NCBI GenBank assembly: GCA_029258835.1
Contig: JAPDJY010000008.1
Coordinates: 1 to 64,000 of the forward strand
Direction: 5' to 3'
Length of the DNA: 64,000 nt
Origin: Thermoproteota archaeon
Lineage (GTDB): Archaea > Asgardarchaeota > Jordiarchaeia > Jordiarchaeales > Freyrarchaeaceae
Position numbers and translations under genes: made by a program. Position 1 is the stretch's first letter; every line of letters starts with the position of its first letter. This document shows, in pieces, positions 2,318 through 64,000 of this stretch. Below the pieces are notes generated by a model. That model was not told the DNA's origin and did not search any database. It saw nothing but the letters and a program-made list of their open reading frames with translations.

Positions 2318-2671
2318 TTACTCGATATGTTTTCTACGTGCTTCCCTCCAAAAGATGACCCTTGTCAAGATATACCACGAGTAAAGCCATAGAAGTATTA
2401 GAACGCCTGTCGCCGCTACCTTTAAGCTTCCACTCAAAACCTGCGCAACCATCACAGAAGGAGAAGAATTTAAAATAACCATCGTAAGCCACAATATTAC
2501 ATTTTTGGTGGACGAAAAAAGATGCCTGATGATCCTTATAACCACTTCAACTGGCAGCTCAAATGGAGCTATTAACACGTCTACCACGTAGAATATACCT
2601 ACAATAAACAGCCATACAAAGGTCATTATCATCAAAATGGGCAAAAGCCTTCTAACGTCCATTTTAAGCAC
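2318..2671 (-). CDS. Small integral membrane protein (hypothetical).
   Basis: 117-aa ORF with 3-4 hydrophobic segments. Confidence 0.4.
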   Translation of the reverse strand: MLKMDVRRLLPILMIMTFVWLFIVGIFYVVDVLIAPFELPVEVVIRIIRHLFSSTKNVILWLTMVILNSSPSVMVAQVLSGSLKVAATGVLILLWLYSWYILTRVIFWREARRKHIE

Positions 2672-3713
2672 CTGACATAAACGTTAGCAAAGCAGTGACT
2701 ACGGCGAGTATGCCGCTGTAAAGCGTTAGTATAGTAAATCCGTACACTACCTCTGGCTCGCGTAGCGCCCCTCTAGCTAGAACCATTCTCGCCAGTGTTA
2801 TAGGTGCTTCCTTGCTCAGGCTCGCCTCCAGCATTCCGTTATCTAGGAGGCGTGTGGGCCTGTCTTTAACGCTCCTACCCTCAACGAGCCGCTTCACGCT
2901 TGCCAAGTAGTAGAAGGAGTTCATTATGAAGGGGAGCAGCGCTATTACCGTGACGACTTCGAGTCCTCCTATTATAGCCACTCCTCCTATTACGGATCCA
3001 ACGAACAGCGATCCCGTGTCGCCCGAAAACACCTTCGCAGGGTACTTGTTAAAAGGATAGTAGGCTGCCAATGCCCCAAGCATCACGATTGAAACTATAA
3101 ACCCGACGGGGGAGCATAGGATGACGGAGGAAATAGCTATCGAAGAGAAAACTATTATTGTGGTTGCTGGCATAGCTCCGTTGAAGACGTCCAGCATGTT
3201 GACCGTGTTGGAGCACACGGCCATGTTTGTAGGAACGTAGAAGAGGTAAACGTACGTTAAACGTACACTGCCAACTATTGGCAAACGCGGCCTAGGCGTA
3301 AAAACAGGGTATAATGGGTAAATTGCTAAGAGTGGTATGCTTGAAAGCGCCGTTAGTAAAGGCTTAGCCTTGGGGCCAAGAGTTTTAAGGTCATCTATGA
3401 CTCCGACGAACCCTGCAAGGTTGGCTGACAGGAGCAGTGCTATGAGTTTCAAACGGATGTCTGTGTCTTCAAACAGGATGATCGAAAGCAGAATCCCCCC
3501 GTTAAATGCTAAAATAAGTGATAAACCCCCCATTTCCGGGATTAATGGTTTATCTAGTTTATGGGCGTCGACGCCGACGATCCCCCGTATTCTCATTTTC
3601 TCCATGAGGCAAGGTAAGGACAGCTTACAGATGAGAAAGGTTACTATGAAGGCGAGGAACAAGTATGCTACTTCAACTGGTGAGAGGAGCATCAGCTGCA
3701 TTCTCAGCACCAT
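2664..3713 (-). CDS. Glycosyltransferase family 4 (MraY/WecA/AglH-like) UDP-GlcNAc:dolichyl-phosphate GlcNAc-1-phosphate transferase.
   Basis: Polytopic membrane protein with the family motif …IDDLKTLGPKAKPLLT…. Confidence 0.7.
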   Translation of the reverse strand: MVLRMQLMLLSPVEVAYLFLAFIVTFLICKLSLPCLMEKMRIRGIVGVDAHKLDKPLIPEMGGLSLILAFNGGILLSIILFEDTDIRLKLIALLLSANLAGFVGVIDDLKTLGPKAKPLLTALSSIPLLAIYPLYPVFTPRPRLPIVGSVRLTYVYLFYVPTNMAVCSNTVNMLDVFNGAMPATTIIVFSSIAISSVILCSPVGFIVSIVMLGALAAYYPFNKYPAKVFSGDTGSLFVGSVIGGVAIIGGLEVVTVIALLPFIMNSFYYLASVKRLVEGRSVKDRPTRLLDNGMLEASLSKEAPITLARMVLARGALREPEVVYGFTILTLYSGILAVVTALLTFMSGA

Positions 3714-3722
3714 CGGCGCGTT

Positions 3723-4694
3723 TCAGCTTAGACTGGCCTTTCTCTTCGATTTTAAGCTTTCTGATATTGCCTCTGCAACCCTGAGGGCGCGAACCCCATC
3801 CTCTCCAGATGGTTGCGGCTGCCTGTTTCTCAATATGGATGAAACGAAGTGTTCCAGCTCAAGCCTTAACGGCTCCCTCCACTCACCTTTAGAGTTCATG
3901 ATCCATTCATCACTTTCAACCCGAACCTTCTGGGAGATGTAGTCTAACTTGACTATTCCACTATCACCGGTTATGGAAAGCTCTCTTACCTTTCTCGGCG
4001 TAAGCCAGTTCGCCTCCACCACGCATGTTAACCCATTATCTAGGTGAAGCAGTGCGGTCACATAATCCTCATACTTATGCCTCAAGCATCCTCCAGTAGC
4101 ATAGACCGAAACGACGGGACGCCGGAAAACGTAATGAATCAAGTCTATGTCGTGGATGGCTACGTCCTTAATGACTCCTACGTCTCCTACACGTTCAGGC
4201 CAGAAAGGTCCCACCCGCTTAGAAATCGCCATGACAGGCTCACCGATAATCCCCCTTCTCAAAACATCTATTACTTTTAGAACTCCCGGGTTAAACCTCT
4301 CAACAAACCCGACCATTAGAAAGACGCCTTGCTCCTTAACATGGGTTAAAAGGTCGATTGCCTCCTCAAGGCTGCTAGTCATAGGCTTCTCGACAAGCAC
4401 GTGTTTACCTGACAGCACACTTTTAACAGCTAACTCATAATGGGTAGAGGTGGGTGTACATATACTAACTGCTTCCATGTCCTCTTTTTTAAGGAATTCT
4501 TCTATATCTGAGTACCACTCCACACCGTACTCCTTACCGATCCTACGTGCCACATCCTCCCTGACGTCGCAGACGCCGACCAGCTCCGCCAGCTCTATGG
4601 ATGCAAAATTGCGAACATGATGCTTCCCCCATGCTCCAACACCAATAACTCCTACACCTAAACTCGTAAGTAAAACCCCCTCCAAGCCGAGCAA
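3723..4694 (-). CDS. Gfo/Idh/MocA-family NAD(P)-dependent oxidoreductase.
   Basis: N-terminal Rossmann motif GVGVIGVGAWGKHHVRN and a fold typical of the family. Confidence 0.7.
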   Translation of the reverse strand: MLGLEGVLLTSLGVGVIGVGAWGKHHVRNFASIELAELVGVCDVREDVARRIGKEYGVEWYSDIEEFLKKEDMEAVSICTPTSTHYELAVKSVLSGKHVLVEKPMTSSLEEAIDLLTHVKEQGVFLMVGFVERFNPGVLKVIDVLRRGIIGEPVMAISKRVGPFWPERVGDVGVIKDVAIHDIDLIHYVFRRPVVSVYATGGCLRHKYEDYVTALLHLDNGLTCVVEANWLTPRKVRELSITGDSGIVKLDYISQKVRVESDEWIMNSKGEWREPLRLELEHFVSSILRNRQPQPSGEDGVRALRVAEAISESLKSKRKASLS

Positions 4695-4696
4695 TC

Positions 4697-6469
4697 CTAT
4701 AACTTTAGCGGAGACGGCCTCTTTATGGCCTCAATCTCCCTCAGCGCCTCCAACTCATCAGACGTAAGCTCCTCTCTAAGTTCAAACTTAAACTTGTCAA
4801 TATGGCTTAGCGGCATACTCGTGTAGAGGACGTCTCCCTCATCTATCTGCCTTCCAACCGTAGGCCCCCTTATCGATATGGCAACCTGCTCGCCTTGCCT
4901 TGCATAGGGTTTAGCTTCACCCTTATCTTGTATCTGAAGGATCTCCCCCACCTCCTTGCCCTCCCTATTCATTAACCGGTACCTCGGCCTAATTTCGCCT
5001 GAAACGACCTCCACACCGACTATTGCAGGTTTACTCCGCCTGAACACGTATCCTGGCAGAATCCTTATCTTAGCCGGTTTTACCAGCCCTTCCATAGCCT
5101 GTCTCCTCATTTCTTCCCTCATCGCTAAAACCCACTCATTGTACTTCTCAAAGAGCTTGTAAATTATCTTGTCATAGAAAACCGTGACACCGAACTTCTC
5201 AGCTTCCTCTTCAGCGTCAGGCAGTATCCTAACGTTAAACGCTAGAATCACCGCACTTAGAGGGTCACGCTCCGCCACAGCCGCAGCCTCTAATACGTCC
5301 TTCTTGGCTACGTCCCCGATATCCGCAACCCTAACGGCAACCCCTCTCTCCCTAAAAAAGTTCACAAGGGCCTCTAAGGATCCTAAGGTGTCCGCCTTGA
5401 TAACCACTCCTACACGGTCAGTCCTTACCATTATACTCTCGATTTCCCGTTGAACTTCTTTTGCTATCTCCTCCACCTGCTCTGGGTCTCTTACCCCCCT
5501 CAAGGGAGCACCGGCAACAACTTTATCCAAGTTCGGCGCTGCGATCTTTACGCCTGCAGCCGCCGCAACCTCCTCAACCGAGATAAACCTTTCCCTAGGA
5601 TCCCTCATCTCATCTAAGGGCTTAGGCTGAAGCAAAGCCCGAATCCTAGTCGTCACAGCGCCATTAAGCCCTCCAGTAACCAGCAAGTCGTTCCTACGTA
5701 AAACTCCATCGTAGAGAATAACATCGATGGTAGTACCAAGTCCAGTCTCCTCTTTAACCTCCAAAACAACACCCTTGGCCTCACCCTCCGAGACGGTAAG
5801 CCGCTTCTTCAGGTACTGTTGCGCTAAGCCTGCGAGAACCACAAGTAGCTCAGCCACCCCCTCACCAGTCTTAGCACTGGTTGGAACGATGGCAACAGTC
5901 TTCGTAAAGTCCCTAACCCTATCAAACCTCTCGGAGTTAAACCCTGCACCGGACAACTCACCCATTAACTCATAAATTCTCTCATCCAGCATCCTTCTAA
6001 CGTAATCTTCCTGTAAATCAATAGCCTTAAGAAACGACCTCGACCCCGAGGGACGCCAACCGGGGATCAAATCAATTTTATTCGCCGCAACCAGAAAAGG
6101 AACACGCCGACTTCTCAAAAGATTAATGCACTCATACGTTTGGGTCTGGAAGCCTCGCACCACGTCAACAACTAAAACAGCAAAATCTGCCACAGCTCCT
6201 CCACGCGCCCTAAGATTAAAGAAGGCTTCATGACCGGGAGTATCTAAAACTAAAATGCCAGGAATAGTAAGCTTAATGTTAAACTTCTCAACTAATTCCT
6301 CAGCAAGATCTTCAATAACCTCCGTTGGGAGAAAAGACGCGCCGATATGCTGAGTAATCCCCCCTGCCTCCCTCAACTGAACACCTGTACCCCTAATAGC
6401 ATCGAGTAACGCTGTCTTCCCATGGTCAATATGGCCCAGCACCACCGCTATAGGTGATCTCAGCTTCAT
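4697..6469 (-). CDS. infB: Translation initiation factor aIF5B (IF-2 homologue).
   Basis: GTPase motifs VLGHIDHGKTALLD, DTPGHE and NKID. The length of 590 aa is normal, so no intein is present. Confidence 0.9.
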   Translation of the reverse strand: MKLRSPIAVVLGHIDHGKTALLDAIRGTGVQLREAGGITQHIGASFLPTEVIEDLAEELVEKFNIKLTIPGILVLDTPGHEAFFNLRARGGAVADFAVLVVDVVRGFQTQTYECINLLRSRRVPFLVAANKIDLIPGWRPSGSRSFLKAIDLQEDYVRRMLDERIYELMGELSGAGFNSERFDRVRDFTKTVAIVPTSAKTGEGVAELLVVLAGLAQQYLKKRLTVSEGEAKGVVLEVKEETGLGTTIDVILYDGVLRRNDLLVTGGLNGAVTTRIRALLQPKPLDEMRDPRERFISVEEVAAAAGVKIAAPNLDKVVAGAPLRGVRDPEQVEEIAKEVQREIESIMVRTDRVGVVIKADTLGSLEALVNFFRERGVAVRVADIGDVAKKDVLEAAAVAERDPLSAVILAFNVRILPDAEEEAEKFGVTVFYDKIIYKLFEKYNEWVLAMREEMRRQAMEGLVKPAKIRILPGYVFRRSKPAIVGVEVVSGEIRPRYRLMNREGKEVGEILQIQDKGEAKPYARQGEQVAISIRGPTVGRQIDEGDVLYTSMPLSHIDKFKFELREELTSDELEALREIEAIKRPSPLKL

Positions 6470-6775: not shown

Positions 6776-6874
6776 GGGCCGATAGCTCAGCTAGGTAGAG
6801 CGCCGGGCTCTTAACCCGGTGGTCGCGGGTGGGTGTTCAAAGCCCCGCGAATTCGAATCCCGCTCGGCCCGCCA
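6776..6874 (+). tRNA. tRNA-Lys(CUU) with an encoded CCA and a 22-nt non-canonical intron (6830..6851) between positions 53 and 54 in the T-arm.
   Basis: Acceptor stem GGGCCGA/TCGGCCC, D-arm GCTC-AGCTAGGTA-GAGC, anticodon arm CCGGG-CUCUUAA-CCCGG. The T-arm GCGGG/TTCGAAT/CCCGC forms only after removing 6830..6851. The intron folds as a 4-bp helix cgcg:cgcg, 3-nt bulges (ggt, aat) and a hairpin. Confidence 0.8.
6830..6851 (+). other. tRNA intron with a relaxed BHB (H-B-h') motif, located in the T-loop.
   Basis: Removal is required for the T-arm to form. H is 6824..6827:6846..6849, the cuts fall after the 2nd bulge nucleotide. Confidence 0.75.
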
Positions 6875-8560: not shown

Positions 8561-9293
8561 ATGAGGCGGGAGGCTTTGAGGGAAACACTTCTTGAAAAGA
8601 AGAAGAGGCTTATAGAACGGTTGAAAATAGAAGGCTTTGTTAGGGATGAAAGGGTGATCAAGGCTTTCCTAAAGGTTCCAAGAGAGAAGTTTCTACCCGA
8701 CGAGTTGAAGGAGTACGCTTATGATGACCGTCCACTTCCGATACCAGGGGGTCAGACGATATCCGCGCCACATAGAGAGTTTACTCTCTAGGCGAGACAT
8801 GTGTGTTTTAATGTGTGACCTCCTAAAACTGTGTGAAGGCATGAAGGTTCTTGAAGTTGGAGCAGGATCAGGCTATCATGCAGCTCTTTGCGCCGAAATA
8901 GTAGCTCCCGAGGAGGCAAGCAAGAAGGGACACGTGTACACCATTGAACGCATGAAGGAACTAGTGGATTTTTCTAGGAAAAACCTTGAGAGGGCTGGTT
9001 ACGGGGATCGTGTCACGGTCATTCTAGGCGACGGGACTCTCGGGCACCCTGAAGCCGCACCGTACGATGCTATTTTGGTAACAGCCGCTGGCCCCGACAT
9101 TCCCAAGCCTCTACTTGACCAGCTTGCGCGGGGTGGACGCATGGTCATACCGGTAGGTCGTTTCTACTACAGTCAAACATTGGTCTTAGTGGAGAAAGAC
9201 GAGAAGGGCCGTGTCAGGAAAAAGGACTATGGAGCCGTGGCATTTGTACCCTTAGTCGGGGAGTACGGCTGGAACAAACCTTACCTAGGATAA
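8561..9293 (+). CDS. pcm: Protein-L-isoaspartate O-methyltransferase interrupted by a 25-nt putative BHB intron. The CDS is join(8561..8771,8797..9293).
   Basis: ORF 8561..8791 encodes the PIMT N-terminus and ends …[12 protein letters not shown] 8721..9293, in a +1 frame, encodes the remainder: MCVLMCDLL…[11 protein letters not shown] (motif I)…[12 protein letters not shown]. Joining across the 25-nt excision gives a continuous PIMT. Confidence 0.8.
8772..8796 (+). other. Putative mRNA mini-intron (relaxed BHB) within pcm.
   Basis: Central helix cgcc(8766..8769):ggcg(8791..8794). Bulges aca(8770..8772) and aga(8795..8797). Intron hairpin tagagag:ctctcta (8773..8779:8784..8790). Cuts after the 2nd bulge nucleotide remove exactly the 25 nt that restore the frame. 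Confidence 0.65.
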
Positions 9294-14536: not shown

Positions 14537-14784
14537 CTACATCGAAGCATTTCCACTCAACTCTTTTCTTCAACATTCCAATAAAACTTTTCTTCAAAAC
14601 TCAAGCTTCATCGTTTTCTAATCAAACCGTTAAACTCGGGTTTTACAGTGTCTCTCTTATCCATGACCCCGCTTAAACAATTAAAACCTGTGGTTCTAGT
14701 ATTCGTTTCAGTGTTTCACGTTGCCCCTTAGAAAACGCTAATTAACTTTTTTCAAGGTAGTTAAAAGCGGAGGCGCGCTTCAAA

Positions 14785-15486
14785 ATGGAGGAAATAGAGT
14801 GTCCTGTATGTGGCCGCTTAACGCTAAAAGCTAAGTACTGTGCTTTCTGCGGTGCAGAGTTGACCCCCAAGTCAGGCGAGGTTGCAGAGTTAGAGGAGTT
14901 GCCTGATGAAGTAGTAGAGCAGCTCAGGCTGCGTATAAGAATGGAGGAAATAGCGGGGGAATTAGCATCTCTAAAAGGAGAAATCGACGAGTTGGTTAAG
15001 CAGATCTCAGAGGGGCATGACGTGGAAAAATACAGGTTGAAGGTAAAGGAGCTTAGAGAGAAAGCCCAAAATTTAAAGAATGAAAGGGAAAGGCTCGCAG
15101 CTGAAATTAAGCCGTTCCCTCTTGAAGATGTAGCTAAAAAAAGAAGTGAGCTTGAAGAGAGAATTTTACGGTTAGATGCAGCACACGGGAAAGGCGAGGT
15201 TAGCGACGAAGTCTACGCTAAGTTAAGGAAAGAGTATGAGGGGCAGCTGGACGCATTAAAACGCTCCCATTTTAAAGAGATAGCGCTTGTTGAAAAGTGG
15301 ATTGACAGTCTTAAGAGAAAAATTAAAAAGCTCACTGAGGAAGCAGAGCTCCTCTACGCACGACATATAGCTGGGGAAATACCTGAGGAATCTTACATGA
15401 AAGAAAAGGGAAAGTTAGAGTCGGAATTAAAGGAAAGTAGGGTTTACGCGGAGATGCTCGAACTCATACTGCGGAAATGGAGCTAA
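14785..15486 (+). CDS. Zinc-ribbon protein (CPVCG…CAFCG) with a long coiled-coil.
   Basis: N-terminal CxxC…CxxC, then heptad-rich E/K/L sequence. Confidence 0.4.
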   Translation: MEEIECPVCGRLTLKAKYCAFCGAELTPKSGEVAELEELPDEVVEQLRLRIRMEEIAGELASLKGEIDELVKQISEGHDVEKYRLKVKELREKAQNLKNERERLAAEIKPFPLEDVAKKRSELEERILRLDAAHGKGEVSDEVYAKLRKEYEGQLDALKRSHFKEIALVEKWIDSLKRKIKKLTEEAELLYARHIAGEIPEESYMKEKGKLESELKESRVYAEMLELILRKWS

Positions 15487-15536
15487 ACCAACACATTAGC
15501 CTCCTTCATAGTACTATTTTTCATAGTACTATTTAC

Positions 15537-15770
15537 CTACCTCCGCCTCCAAGTCTTGTATGCAAGTTCTATGTCCTCCTTCTTCACGGTCTTTCTCCCT
15601 GTATGCTTGGCTAGTTCGTCTGCGATACGGGCTATTTCAAGCCCAAGCTCTTCCAGAATCTTCCCTAGGGCTTCAGCCGCATCGTCGGATACTCTTTCGG
15701 CACCAGCCATCCTTATGATTCTATCTACCGGGGCAGTCGGTATAATAACACCTTTCTTTTTTCTAGCCAT
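15537..15770 (-). CDS. Archaeal histone (HMf-like histone fold).
   Basis: The sequence …[60 protein letters not shown]… closely matches archaeal histone A/B. Confidence 0.85.
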
Positions 15771-15884
15771 AAAAACCCCTCTATTCTCATTTAAACCTCT
15801 ATTTAACGTTTTTAAAATAAAAAACTGTTTTTAAGCTTTTATCTGACAAATTAAAATGTTATGCACGGAAGAATCATGCCATTT

Positions 15885-45288: not shown

Positions 45289-45495
45289 CAGTGAAAACTA
45301 TTGGTTTTAACCATACTTTGGTCAATACCACTTTAAACCTTACCCATTAATAGACTCTTCAGAAGCGCAAAATACTGTTAAATTTCTTACTTCAACCTTT
45401 TTTTATTCTTAATAGATCATTGACAAACCTTCCCAAACCAAACTATTTTCTCTAATTTTCCTTTAAAATGTCTTCTATTTCTCCTAGTAACCTAG

Positions 45496-45727
45496 CTACT
45501 TTCTGTCCTTTTTTCGGTAAGCTTATAAAAAACGCGGTAAAAGGTAATCTTGCTCCAGCTCCTTTTTTTAATTAGGCCAGCTTTTATCAGCTTACTAATT
45601 GTCGTTAATGTTGCATTGGGGTTTCCTCCAAGTCGACGCACTACATCAGTACTTTTAACTTCTCATATTGACTAAGCAAATGTATAATTTGAACCGCTCT
45701 AGCTCGCTCAAGAATAGCTGCCTTCAT
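45496..45727 (-). pseudogene. Small winged-helix transcription regulator disrupted by a 1-nt frameshift at an A4 homopolymer.
   Basis: MKAAILERARAVQIIHLLSQYEKLKVLM* runs from 45727 to 45641. In the +1 frame it continues as STDVVRRLGGNPNATLTTISKLIKAGLIKKRSWSKITFYRVFYKLTEKRTESS* down to 45496. Confidence 0.4.
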
Positions 45728-45827
45728 AATTGAAAAAAATAAAATGCAACAGATGGATTTTTCTTTTCAAAAAAGATATTTCAATACTAATAAATAAAAT
45801 ACAATACTATATTATACTATCGAAAAC

Positions 45828-46174
45828 TTGCTGTTATCAGCGACTGTAGATTATAGTCTTGGCGAGAAAGTTGCTACACGGATTCCTATACCAGTAACAT
45901 ACAACAATTTGCTGATGATAGGTGTGATCGTATCCATACTCGGCGTAACCCTCATAGTTATCGGTGTTCTCGGCGTAGGCGTAAAAAAGAAAGCTACAAC
46001 ATCGCCACCTACAGTGCAACCGCCGACTACTCCTCCATCACCTACATTCCTACGGAGCTCTCAACACAACTTCCATCAGCTGTTCCAGCAACCAAATATT
46101 GTCCCTACTGTGGAGCACAGCTACCACTAGGCGCCACCTACTGTCCAAATTGCGGAAAACAAGCTACCTCATAA
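45828..46174 (+). CDS. Small membrane protein with a TM helix, a Pro/Thr-rich linker and a C-terminal zinc ribbon. The zinc ribbon is reached only by a -1 frameshift near 46047..46050.
   Basis: Frame 0 gives the TM helix and a PPTVQPPTTPPSPTF linker. Frame 2 continues as PTELSTQLPSAVPATKYCPYCGAQLPLGATYCPNCGKQATS* and ends at 46174. Confidence 0.4.
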
Positions 46175-46473
46175 CCTTCCTCCTTCACAGCCTCTTTTCT
46201 TTTTTAGTTTTATTAGCTTTAAGACAGCTTAATTGGATGATGTTCAAGCTAAATTTTATTTTTCATTTTCAAAAATAGCCGTGTGGAGCTTTACGGTAGT
46301 AAGAAAACAAAGTTGGGTTAGGATGAGCCATGAGTGTGGAAGCCTCTCTCTAAACAGCCCCCTAAACTAAATCAAATCTAACTCCCCATCAAAGTCAGGG
46401 AAAGAGAAAATGTTATAAGTGTAAATCTTGGTATTTTCCTCTCCCACGAAAAACGTGAAGATGAAGGTAATGT

Positions 46474-46659
46474 TGGTGGGGGCGCCGAGATTTGAACTCG
46501 GGACCGCTTACGCGTCAGTTTGACTAAACTGCTCTGCGCCCCAGGCAGGACTTATGCCCCTTCATCTAGAAGGGTATTGTACCCCGGGATAGGGAGCTAC
46601 CGGGCTCATACCAGGCTCCCCTATCAGAGGTTTTCCTCTGATATCTAGACCACGCCCCC
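46474..46659 (-). tRNA. tRNA-Pro(GGG) gene of 186 nt containing about 110 nt of multiple non-canonical introns.
   Basis: The 5' acceptor GGGGGCG-UG-GUCUAG and the 3' CCGAG-UUCAAAU-CUCGG-CGCCCCC-A-CCA are intact. The anticodon arm CCUGC-CUGGGGC-GCAG|G forms a perfect 5-bp stem only after removing gene positions 127..152 (46508..46533). Further introns are proposed at 46616..46644 and 46551..46604. The D-arm reconstruction remains imperfect. Confidence 0.6.
46508..46533 (-). other. tRNA-Pro intron between positions 42 and 43 (relaxed BHB).
   Basis: Helix gcgc:gcgu, bulges aga and aag. Excision yields the 3' anticodon stem GCAGG followed by the variable loop CGGUC. Confidence 0.55.
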
Positions 46660-61168: not shown

Positions 61169-61537
61169 TTGTCAAAGCCGCATGTTCGTTTTAAAACTCC
61201 TAGTGAGCTAGCTTCAAAGGCATTAGAAGCCGTTGAAATCGCCCGTGATACTGGGAAGGTGAAACGAGGCACAAATGAGACTACTAAAGCCGTCGAAAGA
61301 GGATTAGCAAAACTAGTAGTTATAGCCGAAAACGTTGACCCGCCGGAAATCGTAATGCACCTTCCTCTCCTATGCGAGGAAAAGGGCGTACCTTACATAT
61401 ATGTTCCAAGCAAAGAGGATTTAGGCGTCTCAGCAGGTATAGACAGGCCGGCAGCATCAGTATGCATTATTAATCCTGGTCAAGCGGAGCAGCTCGTGAA
61501 GGACTTAGCCGAAAAAATAGCTGAAATTAAGGGTTGA
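61169..61537 (+). CDS. rpl7ae: 50S ribosomal protein L7Ae (kink-turn binding).
   Basis: The sequence …[41 protein letters not shown]… matches L7Ae. A TTG start follows a GAAGGAGGG Shine-Dalgarno sequence. Confidence 0.9.
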
Positions 61538-61552
61538 ACCCCTATTTCCTGC

Positions 61553-63151
61553 CTAATCCTTCAATTTTTTGGAAACGTATACCCCGTCTCTTCTGTATCC
61601 ATGCTTATAATAGTATTCCTTTGCTCCAAGACCTGATAGCACTAGGATTTTTCTTGCATCGTAGTCTTCCCTCGCCACCCTCTCAGCCTCTTCCAATAGT
61701 TTACTTCCATACCCTTTATGTTGCCACGCATCATTAACCCGTTCACCAAGAGGAACTAACGGCCCATAAACGTGAAGCTCCCGCACCACTACGGATTCTG
61801 TCTTTGTAATTTCCGGCCTATGAGCCTTCTCTGAAGGCCGCCTTAACCTAATGAATCCTATGAGCGCCCGCCGATCTAACGTTTCATAGGAAATGAATGC
61901 TTCCTCCCCCTCCGAAGCCGGGTACTTCTCTACATACAGTTTTACCTCTTCATGTGATGGAGGTTTCCCTCCTCTCCGCAGATAATGCCCTACTTCCCTG
62001 CATCTTATACAGTTACACCTTTTCCCTTCCATTTGCAGCCTTTCTAAGACAAGTTCTCTAAGGTTGCTTTTTTTGACTCCATCTATTATGAGGTGGGCAG
62101 GTATGTCCCTCTGCACGCGCTGCACCCTAATCCAGTAAGGAATGGTCTTCTTGGCTTGGGCGATAACCTCTATAACGGTTTCAGTAGGGTATGGCTTATA
62201 CTCTCCTTTCAAATACATGTCATAAAGCTTCGTGCCCTTAAGCACGAGGCAAGGGTATATTTTTAGTCCATCCGGTTTAAAGCGTGAATCGTTAAAAATG
62301 GTTTTAAAGACGTTAACATCTAGCTCGGGGGTTGACCCAGGGAGGTTAGGCATAATGTGAGCGGTAACCTTTAAGCCAGCATCCTTTGCAATCCTAAATG
62401 CTTCCACTACGTCTTCTACGGTGTGCCCTCTCTGAATCAATTCGTATATCTCATCGTAAATAGTCTGTACGCCTATTTCCACTTTCGTCGCCCCTAGAAA
62501 CAGCATCCTGTCTACATGATACTCTCTACAGTAGTCGGGCCTAGTTTCAATCGTTATACCAACATTCCTTATCTCAGACCTTTCTGCTGCCTCCTTAGCT
62601 TCTTCTATGCCTAAGGAGTTCACCCCTGTAATAGCGTCTAAGCATCTCTTAACAAAGTAGTTTTGGTAGCTTTCTGGGGTAGCTAGGAACGTTCCTCCCA
62701 TTATCACCAGCTTAACCTTACTTCTATCGACGGGGTGCCCTATCCTTTCGAGCTGCTCCAGACGAGACCTAACCTGCATGTATGGATCATAATTGTTTTC
62801 TATGGCGCGCATCGTTGCGGGTTCACGGCCTGTGTAAGACTTTGGGACGCCTTCGCCTCCAGGACAGTATATGCACCTTCCCGGACACGGGAATGGAGGC
62901 GCCATAACCGCAATTATTAAAATGCCGGAAATAGAACGCGTCTCCTTCCTTCTAAGGACCCGAACCAGCCTCGCCTTCTCCTCCTCAGTAGCATAGGATA
63001 GAATTTTAACGTTACTGGGCACACTTCTTAATCCATACCTTGCACAGACTTGCCTTTTCACTTTCCTAAGTTCCTCACCTTTTAGCAGAAGATTAATAAT
63101 CTCCCTGCAAGCCTTCTCCTCAATAGATACCTCTTGGCTAACGGTGTACAT
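61553..63151 (-). CDS. elp3: Elp3-like radical-SAM/GNAT acetyltransferase.
   Basis: Radical-SAM CxxxCxxC (CPGRCIYC) and a C-terminal GNAT domain. The start is the ATG at 63151, with a GAGGGGTG Shine-Dalgarno sequence 7 nt upstream and a TATA box further upstream. Confidence 0.85.
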   Translation of the reverse strand: MYTVSQEVSIEEKACREIINLLLKGEELRKVKRQVCARYGLRSVPSNVKILSYATEEEKARLVRVLRRKETRSISGILIIAVMAPPFPCPGRCIYCPGGEGVPKSYTGREPATMRAIENNYDPYMQVRSRLEQLERIGHPVDRSKVKLVIMGGTFLATPESYQNYFVKRCLDAITGVNSLGIEEAKEAAERSEIRNVGITIETRPDYCREYHVDRMLFLGATKVEIGVQTIYDEIYELIQRGHTVEDVVEAFRIAKDAGLKVTAHIMPNLPGSTPELDVNVFKTIFNDSRFKPDGLKIYPCLVLKGTKLYDMYLKGEYKPYPTETVIEVIAQAKKTIPYWIRVQRVQRDIPAHLIIDGVKKSNLRELVLERLQMEGKRCNCIRCREVGHYLRRGGKPPSHEEVKLYVEKYPASEGEEAFISYETLDRRALIGFIRLRRPSEKAHRPEITKTESVVVRELHVYGPLVPLGERVNDAWQHKGYGSKLLEEAERVAREDYDARKILVLSGLGAKEYYYKHGYRRDGVYVSKKLKD

Positions 63152-63298
63152 TAACCGGCACCCCTCATAGTACTGTTCTCTTCGAAAGGGTAAAATATAA
63201 ACTCTTTGTGCTACACGGATTTTACTTTCATTGGTCATATTTATTACGTGATCTCTTCTTTAGGAGTTCTTGGAATTACCAAGCGCGAGGTGAACCCC

Positions 63299-64000
63299 TT
63301 GGACGTTTCAGCACGGGAAATCGATTATAAGGCAGTTGGCTTTAAAGCCGGCTTGGAAATACACCAGGAACTCCGTACCTCTCGTAAACTTTTCTGCCAC
63401 TGTCCACCCATACTTAGAAGCGATCCACCCCACTTTACCATTAGAAGGTTCTTCCGACCTGTCCTCGGAGAAATGGGCGAGTTTGATGCCGCTATGCTGG
63501 CAGAATACGAGAAAGGAAGAACGGTAATATATGAAGGATACAATGATACAACCTGTAGCTACGAAATAGACGAAACGTACATGTGAATTGCATGTACGCG
63601 TCAAACACCCCCATTCGAGATATCCACTGAAGCGCTTGAAATAGGGCTAGAACTAGCCCTCCTCCTGAAGGCTAACATTGTTGACGAACTTCACGTGTGC
63701 AGGAAAAATTATCTTGACGGCTCCGTACCATGCGGCTTTCAGCGCACTTTAGTTATAGGGTTAAACGGCAGGATCCCTGTAAATGGTAAAGAAGTCGGAA
63801 TCGAAACCATATGTATAGAGGAAGACGCTGCACGGAAGGTGAAAGAGGAGGGGAAAACAGTCTACTACAGGCTTGACCGGCTTGGAATACCACTAGTTGA
63901 GATAGTGACAAGTCCTGACATTGAAACACCAGAGGAACTCCTAGAAACCGCTTTCCGCATAGGCCTCCTCCTCAGAAGCACAGGAAAGGTGAAAAGAGGA
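63299..64000 (+). CDS. gatE: Glu-tRNA(Gln) amidotransferase subunit E, interrupted by a 30-nt putative BHB intron that carries an in-frame TGA. The CDS is join(63299..63574,63605..>64000) and is partial at the window end.
   Basis: N-terminal GatE motifs EIDYKAVGFKAGLEIHQEL…KLFCHCP…YNDTTCSYEIDET. A TGA follows at 63584. The same frame then continues PPFEISTEALEIGLELALLLKANIVDELHVCRKNYLDGS…. Homologues read …DET-PPxE… with no insert. Confidence 0.75.
63575..63604 (+). other. Putative mRNA mini-intron (relaxed BHB) within gatE.
   Basis: Central helix gacg(63569..63572):cgtc(63599..63602). Bulges aaa(63573..63575) and aaa(63603..63605). Perfect 8-bp intron hairpin cgtacatg:catgtacg with loop tgaattg. 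The predicted cuts remove 30 nt and give …DET|PPF…. Confidence 0.65.

Follow-up and report, generated by a model that had tools for sequence, protein, structure and literature searches.

A predicted endonuclease-type intron in the gatE mRNA of an Asgard archaeon, with a counterpart in pcm

Introduction

The gatE gene at the end of a 64,000-nucleotide stretch of Asgard archaeal DNA (contig JAPDJY010000008.1, positions 1 to 64,000, hereafter the window) raises the question of how an intact protein could be made from a frame that holds a stop codon. On the + strand the frame reads ...YNDTTCSYEIDETYM*IACTRQTPPFEIS..., with the interrupting TGA at 63584-63586; its start codon is either the GTG at 63290 or the TTG at 63299, and it leaves the window at 64000. 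A first-pass annotation, made from the letters of the window alone, had pointed to this frame, to its TGA and to a 30-nucleotide (nt) insert around it, all of which are present as described, and had proposed that the insert is removed as a bulge-helix-bulge intron. The evidence assembled here argues that 63575..63604 is a relaxed bulge-helix-bulge (HBh') intron in gatE, which would be cut by the tRNA splicing endonuclease and the exons rejoined by an RNA ligase. We assign this reading a probability of about 0.88. That a second conserved gene in the window shares the geometry had also been suggested, and this gene is pcm (protein-L-isoaspartate O-methyltransferase), with a predicted intron at 8772..8796.

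The gatE insert and its predicted fold

The DNA from 63569 on reads GACG AAA CGTACATGT GAATT GCATGTACG CGTC AAA C, and the sequence AAAC occurs twice around the insert, at 63573-63576 and 63603-63606, where a direct repeat had been noted. Excision of the predicted intron (63575..63604, +) gives ...EIDET|PPFEIS..., the DETPPFE reading that was expected of it, with the predicted junction peptide ...SYEIDETPPFEISTEALEIGLELALLLK. The expectation that homologues pass directly from DET to PP is borne out by all 13 aligned GatE homologues, which go from D/E-E/D-T/E straight into P-P; in this alignment the window sequence alone has the 10 extra codons. The homology gap coincides exactly with the predicted intron and lies between invariant residues. 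Exon 1 (63290..63574, +) closes with ...GAC GAA and so includes the first two nucleotides of the 5' bulge; it is supported by its translation, by the alignment of the 13 homologues and by Pfam GatB_N matches on the homologues. Exon 2 (63605..64000, +) runs past the window end and has 547 codons in a contig of the same species (L081).

The minimum-energy fold of the RNA joins a 4 base pair (bp) helix (GACG:CGUC) through a 3-nt bulge to a 9-bp hairpin, and three unpaired A come last. The 5' strand of the central helix (63569..63572, +) lies in exon 1, where it forms part of the Asp-Glu codons, and is invariant in four lineages, third codon positions included; the equally invariant 3' strand CGTC (63599..63602, +) consists of intron nucleotides. 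Between them stand the 5' bulge AAA (63573..63575, +), in which the predicted cut 63574/63575 is placed by the fold, the homology junction and the tRNA-Lys control described below, and the inner hairpin (63576..63598, +), with arms CGTACATG(T)/(G)CATGTACG. The 3' AAA (63603..63605, +), a bulge in name since it is unclosed and the pairing of its flanks is not conserved, contains the predicted cut 63604/63605. The hairpin has eight Watson-Crick pairs, as first described, plus one U.G pair that closes the loop GAAUU. The U of this pair is the T of the TGA (63584..63586, +), so that the stop codon sits at the edge of stem and loop and not within the loop, where it had been placed. At -15.8 kcal/mol (z = -4.0 to -4.4) the fold is more stable than that of any of 200 shuffled sequences.

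Two 3-nt bulges on opposite strands with a 4-bp helix between them define an archaeal endonuclease intron, and the gatE insert has both. The motif is the relaxed form (HBh') and not the strict bulge-helix-bulge (hBHBh'), and its inner helix h' is strong (8-11 bp). How improbable such a motif is can be judged from a strict scan of both window strands for a 4-bp Watson-Crick helix, 3 nt, a compact hairpin, the complementary 4 bp and 3 nt. The gatE site is the only one in the window with an inner stem of at least 8 pairs, for which the shuffled expectation is 0.7 per strand. By itself the gatE motif is therefore only mildly improbable, and its weight comes from its position at the homology gap and from the relatives.

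The insert in relatives of the window genome

Among genomic gatE loci, the closest are those of Jordarchaeia (= Freyarchaeia), a class of Asgard archaea: isolate QC4 (L004, 89% amino-acid identity to the window GatE), Jordarchaeales JZ-1 bin 29 (L001, 83%) and Jordarchaeum LHC_1308 (L016, 83%). Two metagenome contigs from JGI (L081 and L082, 94-95% identity) carry the window's 30-nt insert base for base, with the in-frame TGA and the frame kept, so the insert is no assembly artefact. The contig also recurs in metagenomes, among them JGI 3300022552 (Ga0212118), Ga0180301 and Ga0116200, SRR22064146 and ERZ25515408. The comparison with sister species that had been proposed as a check finds an insert at the same gatE codon in three further Jordarchaeia lineages. 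It is 30 nt long with an in-frame TAG and the frame kept in L001 and L083; 29 nt with a TAG and the frame shifted in L004; and 35 nt in L016 and L093, where the stem is lengthened to 11 bp, two TAGs are present and the frame is shifted.

Among the four lineages there is no difference in the stems, in the 4-bp helix or in either AAA bulge; the loop alone varies. The invariant blocks comprise 18 nt (TAGACGAAACGTACATGT) and 17 nt (ACATGTACGCGTCAAAC), while the exons around the insert show ordinary third-position variation throughout. If each bulge is cut behind its second nucleotide, exon 2 remains an open frame of 545-547 codons in all four lineages. Exon 2 has a ratio of non-synonymous to synonymous substitution rates (dN/dS) of 0.065-0.12 and a synonymous difference (pS) of 0.45-0.83 across them; judged by these values it is under strong purifying selection, with synonymous sites near saturation. 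An intact gatD follows immediately downstream of gatE in the relatives. Forms of gatE that lack the insert occur at greater distance, in metagenomic proteins of 65-68% identity and in Sigynarchaeum and other genomic and metagenomic loci of 60-62%.

The gatE intron stems are unchanged across the four lineages despite 45-83% synonymous difference, whereas the pcm intron of the same clade drifts with compensation. Such a pattern suggests either an extra sequence-level constraint on the gatE intron or a recent homogenisation.

Two other gatE loci proved to be unrelated to the insert. In one (L171, ENA contig_73512, 3001..4953) the gene lies in three pieces, at whose junctions there are plain frame slips and no hairpin; it is intron-free, has 66% identity, and its slips are probably long-read indel errors. 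In the other (P0002, from L172 3001..4017, JGI Ga0187538_173504) the N-terminal 230 residues of GatE are joined to the C-terminal asparaginase domain of GatD, probably by a deletion or as an assembly chimera.

As for its surroundings, gatE is neighboured in the window by an Elp3-type radical-SAM/acetyltransferase gene (61553..63238, -) and by the gene for ribosomal protein L7Ae (61169..61537, +). The order Elp3-gatE-gatD is retained in Jordarchaeia relatives.

A second split gene, pcm

The pcm gene contains CGCC aca TAGAGAG-TTTA-CTCTCTA GGCG aga, with CGCC at 8766-8769. Excision of 8772..8796 (25 nt, +) restores the frame as ...GQTISAPH|MCVLMCDLL..., and the prediction draws on the scan, the fold and 31- and 32-nt versions in relatives. 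Exon 1 (8561..8771, +) is identified from the open reading frame (ORF) list, from a homologue search and from Pfam PCMT matches on both called fragments on other contigs; exon 2 (8797..9293, +) is identified from the splice product SAPH|MCVLMCD together with the ORF list and the homologue search. The exon-2 ORF of the window is recorded from twelve contigs, and on those that include the upstream region, gene calling yields two PCMT fragments.

Jordarchaeales relatives have pcm split at the same place by different introns, of 31 nt in L163 (TAGAGAAG/CTTCTCTA), 31 nt in L161 and L162 (TAAAGGGCTT/AAGCCCTTTA) and 32 nt in L164 and L165. In an alignment of four sequences only, every one of the 46 cells has a standard pair, and of the eight pairs of the hairpin four are changed on both sides. 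Sliding the partner strand by 1-3 columns lowers the pairing to 23-54%, compared with 100% in the true register. These changes point to covariation in support of the motif, from only four sequences.

The two genes obey a common rule. On folding, all four gatE and all four pcm alleles adopt the same layout (z -4.0 to -5.6), and cuts behind the second nucleotide of both bulges give DET|PPF in 4/4 gatE alleles and SAPH|MCV in 4/4 pcm alleles (SAPH|MCVLMCD in full, from introns of 25, 31, 31 and 32 nt), over lengths of 25-35 nt.

A ribosome leaving exon 1 meets an in-frame stop in every allele (four of gatE, four of pcm), and in the window these stops lie at 63584..63586 and 8788..8790. Unspliced RNA would thus give a short truncated peptide, although the universal presence of the stop may be chance, given how few of the alleles are independent.

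Further candidates in the window

Among roughly 55 genes in 64 kilobases (kb), two bear such predicted introns. In the strict compact-hairpin scan, gatE and pcm are the only window sites that also mend a broken gene, and a stop-to-stop ORF map of the window reveals no further split pairs, whether in the same frame or adjacent. A permissive motif scan returned thousands of matches, mostly across ordinary gene junctions, and was uninformative. The ORF pairs at 14761-15831 and 2321-3722 were suspected of being split and turned out to be normal gene ends. A split of FEN1 in the relative L162 is due to a run of N, with no intron.

The tRNA-Lys control

A tRNA intron within the window provides a control for the cut register. 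The tRNA-Lys(CUU) gene (6776..6874, +), found by ARAGORN, has a 22-nt intron (6830..6851) in the T-loop at a non-canonical place, after position 53; in the Rfam alignment it measures 28 nt, as against 6 in the model. It can be drawn in the gatE register as CGCG ggu GGG...CCC CGCG aau. For the mature cloverleaf to form, the cuts must fall 2 nt to the 3' side of both strands of that 4-bp helix, as in the gatE rule. This register agrees with the geometry of tRNA precursors, where position 32 has as its pairing partner the intron nucleotide at -3 relative to the 3' splice site.

The proposed mechanism

In the transcript, exon GACG would pair with intron CGUC, and the stable intron hairpin would stack on the resulting helix, leaving three unpaired A after each of its strands. 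An (alpha-beta)2-type tRNA splicing endonuclease, with a loop for relaxed substrates, would cut after the second A on both sides (63574/63575 and 63604/63605). The exons would then be joined by an RtcB-type ligase, and the intron would probably be circularised. The mature mRNA would read ...GAC GAA|ACA CCC... and be translated as ...DET|PPF..., as in all homologues, while ribosomes on unspliced RNA would halt at the intron TGA. The enzymes, the chemistry of the cut and the removal at the RNA level are what we infer from this arrangement. The presence of a splicing endonuclease and an RtcB ligase in the host we likewise infer, both from the tRNA with an intron in the window and from what the literature says of Asgard endonucleases.

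That literature favours the proposal. Asgard archaea have an (alpha-beta)2 endonuclease with an L1 loop that accepts relaxed motifs, and no forms of the enzyme other than (alpha-beta)2 and epsilon2 cut such motifs (PMC5829648). In Freyarchaeia and Atabeyarchaeia, 92-95% of tRNA genes carry introns, often at non-canonical positions (PMC11291895).

Several observations weigh against an endonuclease-type intron. No outer exon-exon helix closes the 3' AAA, so that the predicted 3' cut would fall in unpaired, open RNA. The GACG:CGTC helix and the two AAA stand as first described, and the missing outer helix makes the motif a relaxed HBh', the substrate class accepted for the two enzyme types just named and for no others. 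One centroid fold shows an outer helix, CGA/UCG, which was dropped because its pairing is unconserved in the flanks of the relatives. The gatE stems never vary and hence give zero covariation signal; the structural support in gatE consists of stability and conservation, and covariation comes from pcm. Finally, the tRNA-Lys region by itself prefers a continuous 7-bp helix over the bulged form, so that this control backs the cut register and not the thermodynamics.

Alternative explanations

The break in gatE could be real at the protein level, the gene being split into two polypeptides that assemble, or dead, with another enzyme supplying Gln-tRNA. Gene callers do annotate two gatE ORFs, split genes are known in some archaea, and an ATG stands at the very start of pcm exon 2, at the junction. 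We nevertheless regard a split or dead gatE as unlikely. The break falls inside the invariant motif E..D-E-T-P-P, and in the relatives the first start codon of the downstream gatE ORF lies more than 10 codons beyond the junction. A dead or truncated gene, an outcome that the first-pass annotation had also allowed for, is incompatible with the selection on exon 2, which remains open for 545 codons at a dN/dS of about 0.07-0.12 in four lineages. Homologue searches, which were not exhaustive, showed no second gatE locus in these genomes. Neither version explains the conserved gatE hairpin with its bulges or the compensatory changes in pcm.

A programmed translational bypass, in which the ribosome would leave the message before the hairpin and land after it without the RNA ever being cut, is in our estimate a slim prospect. 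The gatE insert is short, forms a stable hairpin and contains a stop codon, and because ACG (63575-63577) recurs at 63596-63598, an ACG-to-ACG hop is formally possible in 4/4 gatE alleles. Such a hop, however, would yield DET-RQT-PPF, three residues beyond any homologue, nor is the gatE stop the next codon after take-off. The hop fails in pcm, where CAT...CAT, the sole matched pair, leads into a frame with a TGA after six codons. Bypassing would also leave the invariant 4-bp helix, the two 3-nt bulges and the tRNA-intron-like layout unexplained.

Recoding of the stop, in which UGA would stand for selenocysteine or some other residue and the 10 codons would form a lineage-specific loop of GatE, has very little to recommend it. 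It fits the window allele, where the insert is in frame (30 nt) and the stop is UGA, and selenocysteine machinery is reported for Jordarchaeia (PMC9723677). The relatives have UAG instead, and pyrrolysine machinery is reported in Sifarchaeia only (PMC9723677). Moreover, the frame is shifted in the alleles of 29 and 35 nt, the latter with two UAGs in frame, and the pcm insert is 25 nt long. Read-through, which the first-pass annotation had kept as an alternative, cannot give GatE from the 29- and 35-nt versions; with the frame shifted and the stop different, neither it nor selenocysteine recoding is the conserved mechanism.

An artefact of sequencing or assembly, or a small mobile element, palindromic and recently inserted, that inactivated gatE in one genome, would account for a palindromic insert flanked by a 4-nt direct repeat AAAC that resembles a target-site duplication, yet is hardly credible for an insert found at the same codon in independent assemblies and four diverged lineages, in front of an exon 2 under selection and with no consistent direct repeat in the pcm alleles. 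AAAC was dropped as a target-site duplication for the reason that the pcm alleles do not reproduce it. A mobile hairpin is possible as the origin of the insert, which would still need to be removed at the RNA level.

A further tRNA-like element in the window

Elsewhere in the window, a 186-nt tRNA-like gene at 46474..46659 (-) was missed by ARAGORN and by Rfam at the gathering score. It has the acceptor stem GGGGGCG/CGCCCCC, the T-arm CCGAG-UUCAAAU-CUCGG and an encoded CCA, with about 110 extra nt in several hairpins; its sole signal is a sub-threshold match to the tmRNA model (21.4 bits, E 2.9e-6). The element is probably a tRNA with several introns, and its anticodon may be GUC. In the adjoining 45298..46473 (about 1.2 kb) all ORFs are of at most 100 amino acids; the one ORF checked has no Pfam match, and the region has no Rfam match above threshold.

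Comparison with known systems

The pre-mRNA intron of cbf5 is the closest known counterpart of the gatE and pcm introns. It occurs in Crenarchaeota (Aeropyrum, Sulfolobus and many Desulfurococcales); it is said to have been described by Watanabe in 2002 and Yoshinari in 2006, and was also treated by Yokobori in 2009 (PMC2738675). Like the introns proposed here it is short, interrupts a protein-coding gene and often has a relaxed bulge-helix-bulge at the exon-intron borders (PMC2738675). It is also ascribed to the hetero-oligomeric splicing endonuclease and is patchy among related lineages (PMC2738675). The cbf5 hosts, however, are Crenarchaeota, whereas gatE and pcm belong to the Asgard class Jordarchaeia, with at least two such genes in 64 kb. 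The cbf5 intron is supported by reverse transcription PCR and in vitro cleavage, whereas those of gatE and pcm are predicted from sequence.

The non-canonical tRNA introns of archaea (HBh'/BHL; Freyarchaeia and Atabeyarchaeia, PMC11291895) match the introns proposed here in the 4-bp helix, the 3-nt bulges and the inner hairpin, and also in their size range and in where the cuts fall. The gatE substrate differs in being an mRNA, which has no tRNA body to aid recognition, and the 5' strand of its helix must also encode Asp-Glu. The HAC1/XBP1 system resembles the proposed one in the very short coding-region intron (26 nt in XBP1), in the cleavage of RNA stem-loops by a protein endonuclease, in rejoining by tRNA ligase or RtcB and in the change of reading frame, pcm being a frame switch of the same kind. 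It differs in its nuclease, IRE1, in its motif of two 7-nt loops and in being regulated by stress. Bypass elements (T4 gene 60 and the 'byps' of Magnusiomyces mitochondria) are likewise short hairpin inserts with stops in conserved genes whose protein is uninterrupted. They require matched codons, which pcm fails to provide and gatE provides only with a 3-residue insertion, and they have no requirement for a 4-bp helix with two bulges.

Implications

Endonuclease-type introns in Asgard protein genes have no report in the full-text literature searched, a scope that leaves out subscription-only journals. Papers from 2018 (PMC5829648) and 2025 cite, on archaeal pre-mRNA introns, the cbf5 studies and no others, and a 2026 review of non-canonical splicing leaves the archaeal mRNA intron unmentioned. 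The introns predicted in gatE and pcm would bring the cbf5-type mechanism to new genes and to a new lineage, cbf5 being the sole prior archaeal protein gene in the literature searched. With two cases in 64 kb, further such introns are likely. Annotation is affected, since genes of this kind are called as two fragments or as pseudogenes, and estimates of completeness and metabolism are skewed accordingly.

A wider and much more tentative possibility is that Jordarchaeia/Freyarchaeia have a genome-wide population of mini-introns, dozens per genome; that endonuclease-plus-ligase splicing of mRNA is routine there; and that the gatE intron, or the circle released from it, itself serves some function, such as gating GatE synthesis. 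We think it speculative, and on present sequences somewhat doubtful. If it were true, the perfect sequence conservation of the gatE intron, set against synonymous sites that are saturated, would reflect such a function, and mRNA splicing would be routine in a lineage close to the eukaryotic stem.

If gatE is spliced as proposed, the expression of an essential translation gene would hinge on the splicing of its RNA, in a cell whose transcription and translation are thought to be coupled, and the question becomes how ribosomes are kept off the unspliced RNA. Nearly all tRNA genes of this group bear introns (PMC11291895), and in this relative of the eukaryotic ancestor the machinery that removes them seems to have extended its reach to mRNAs.

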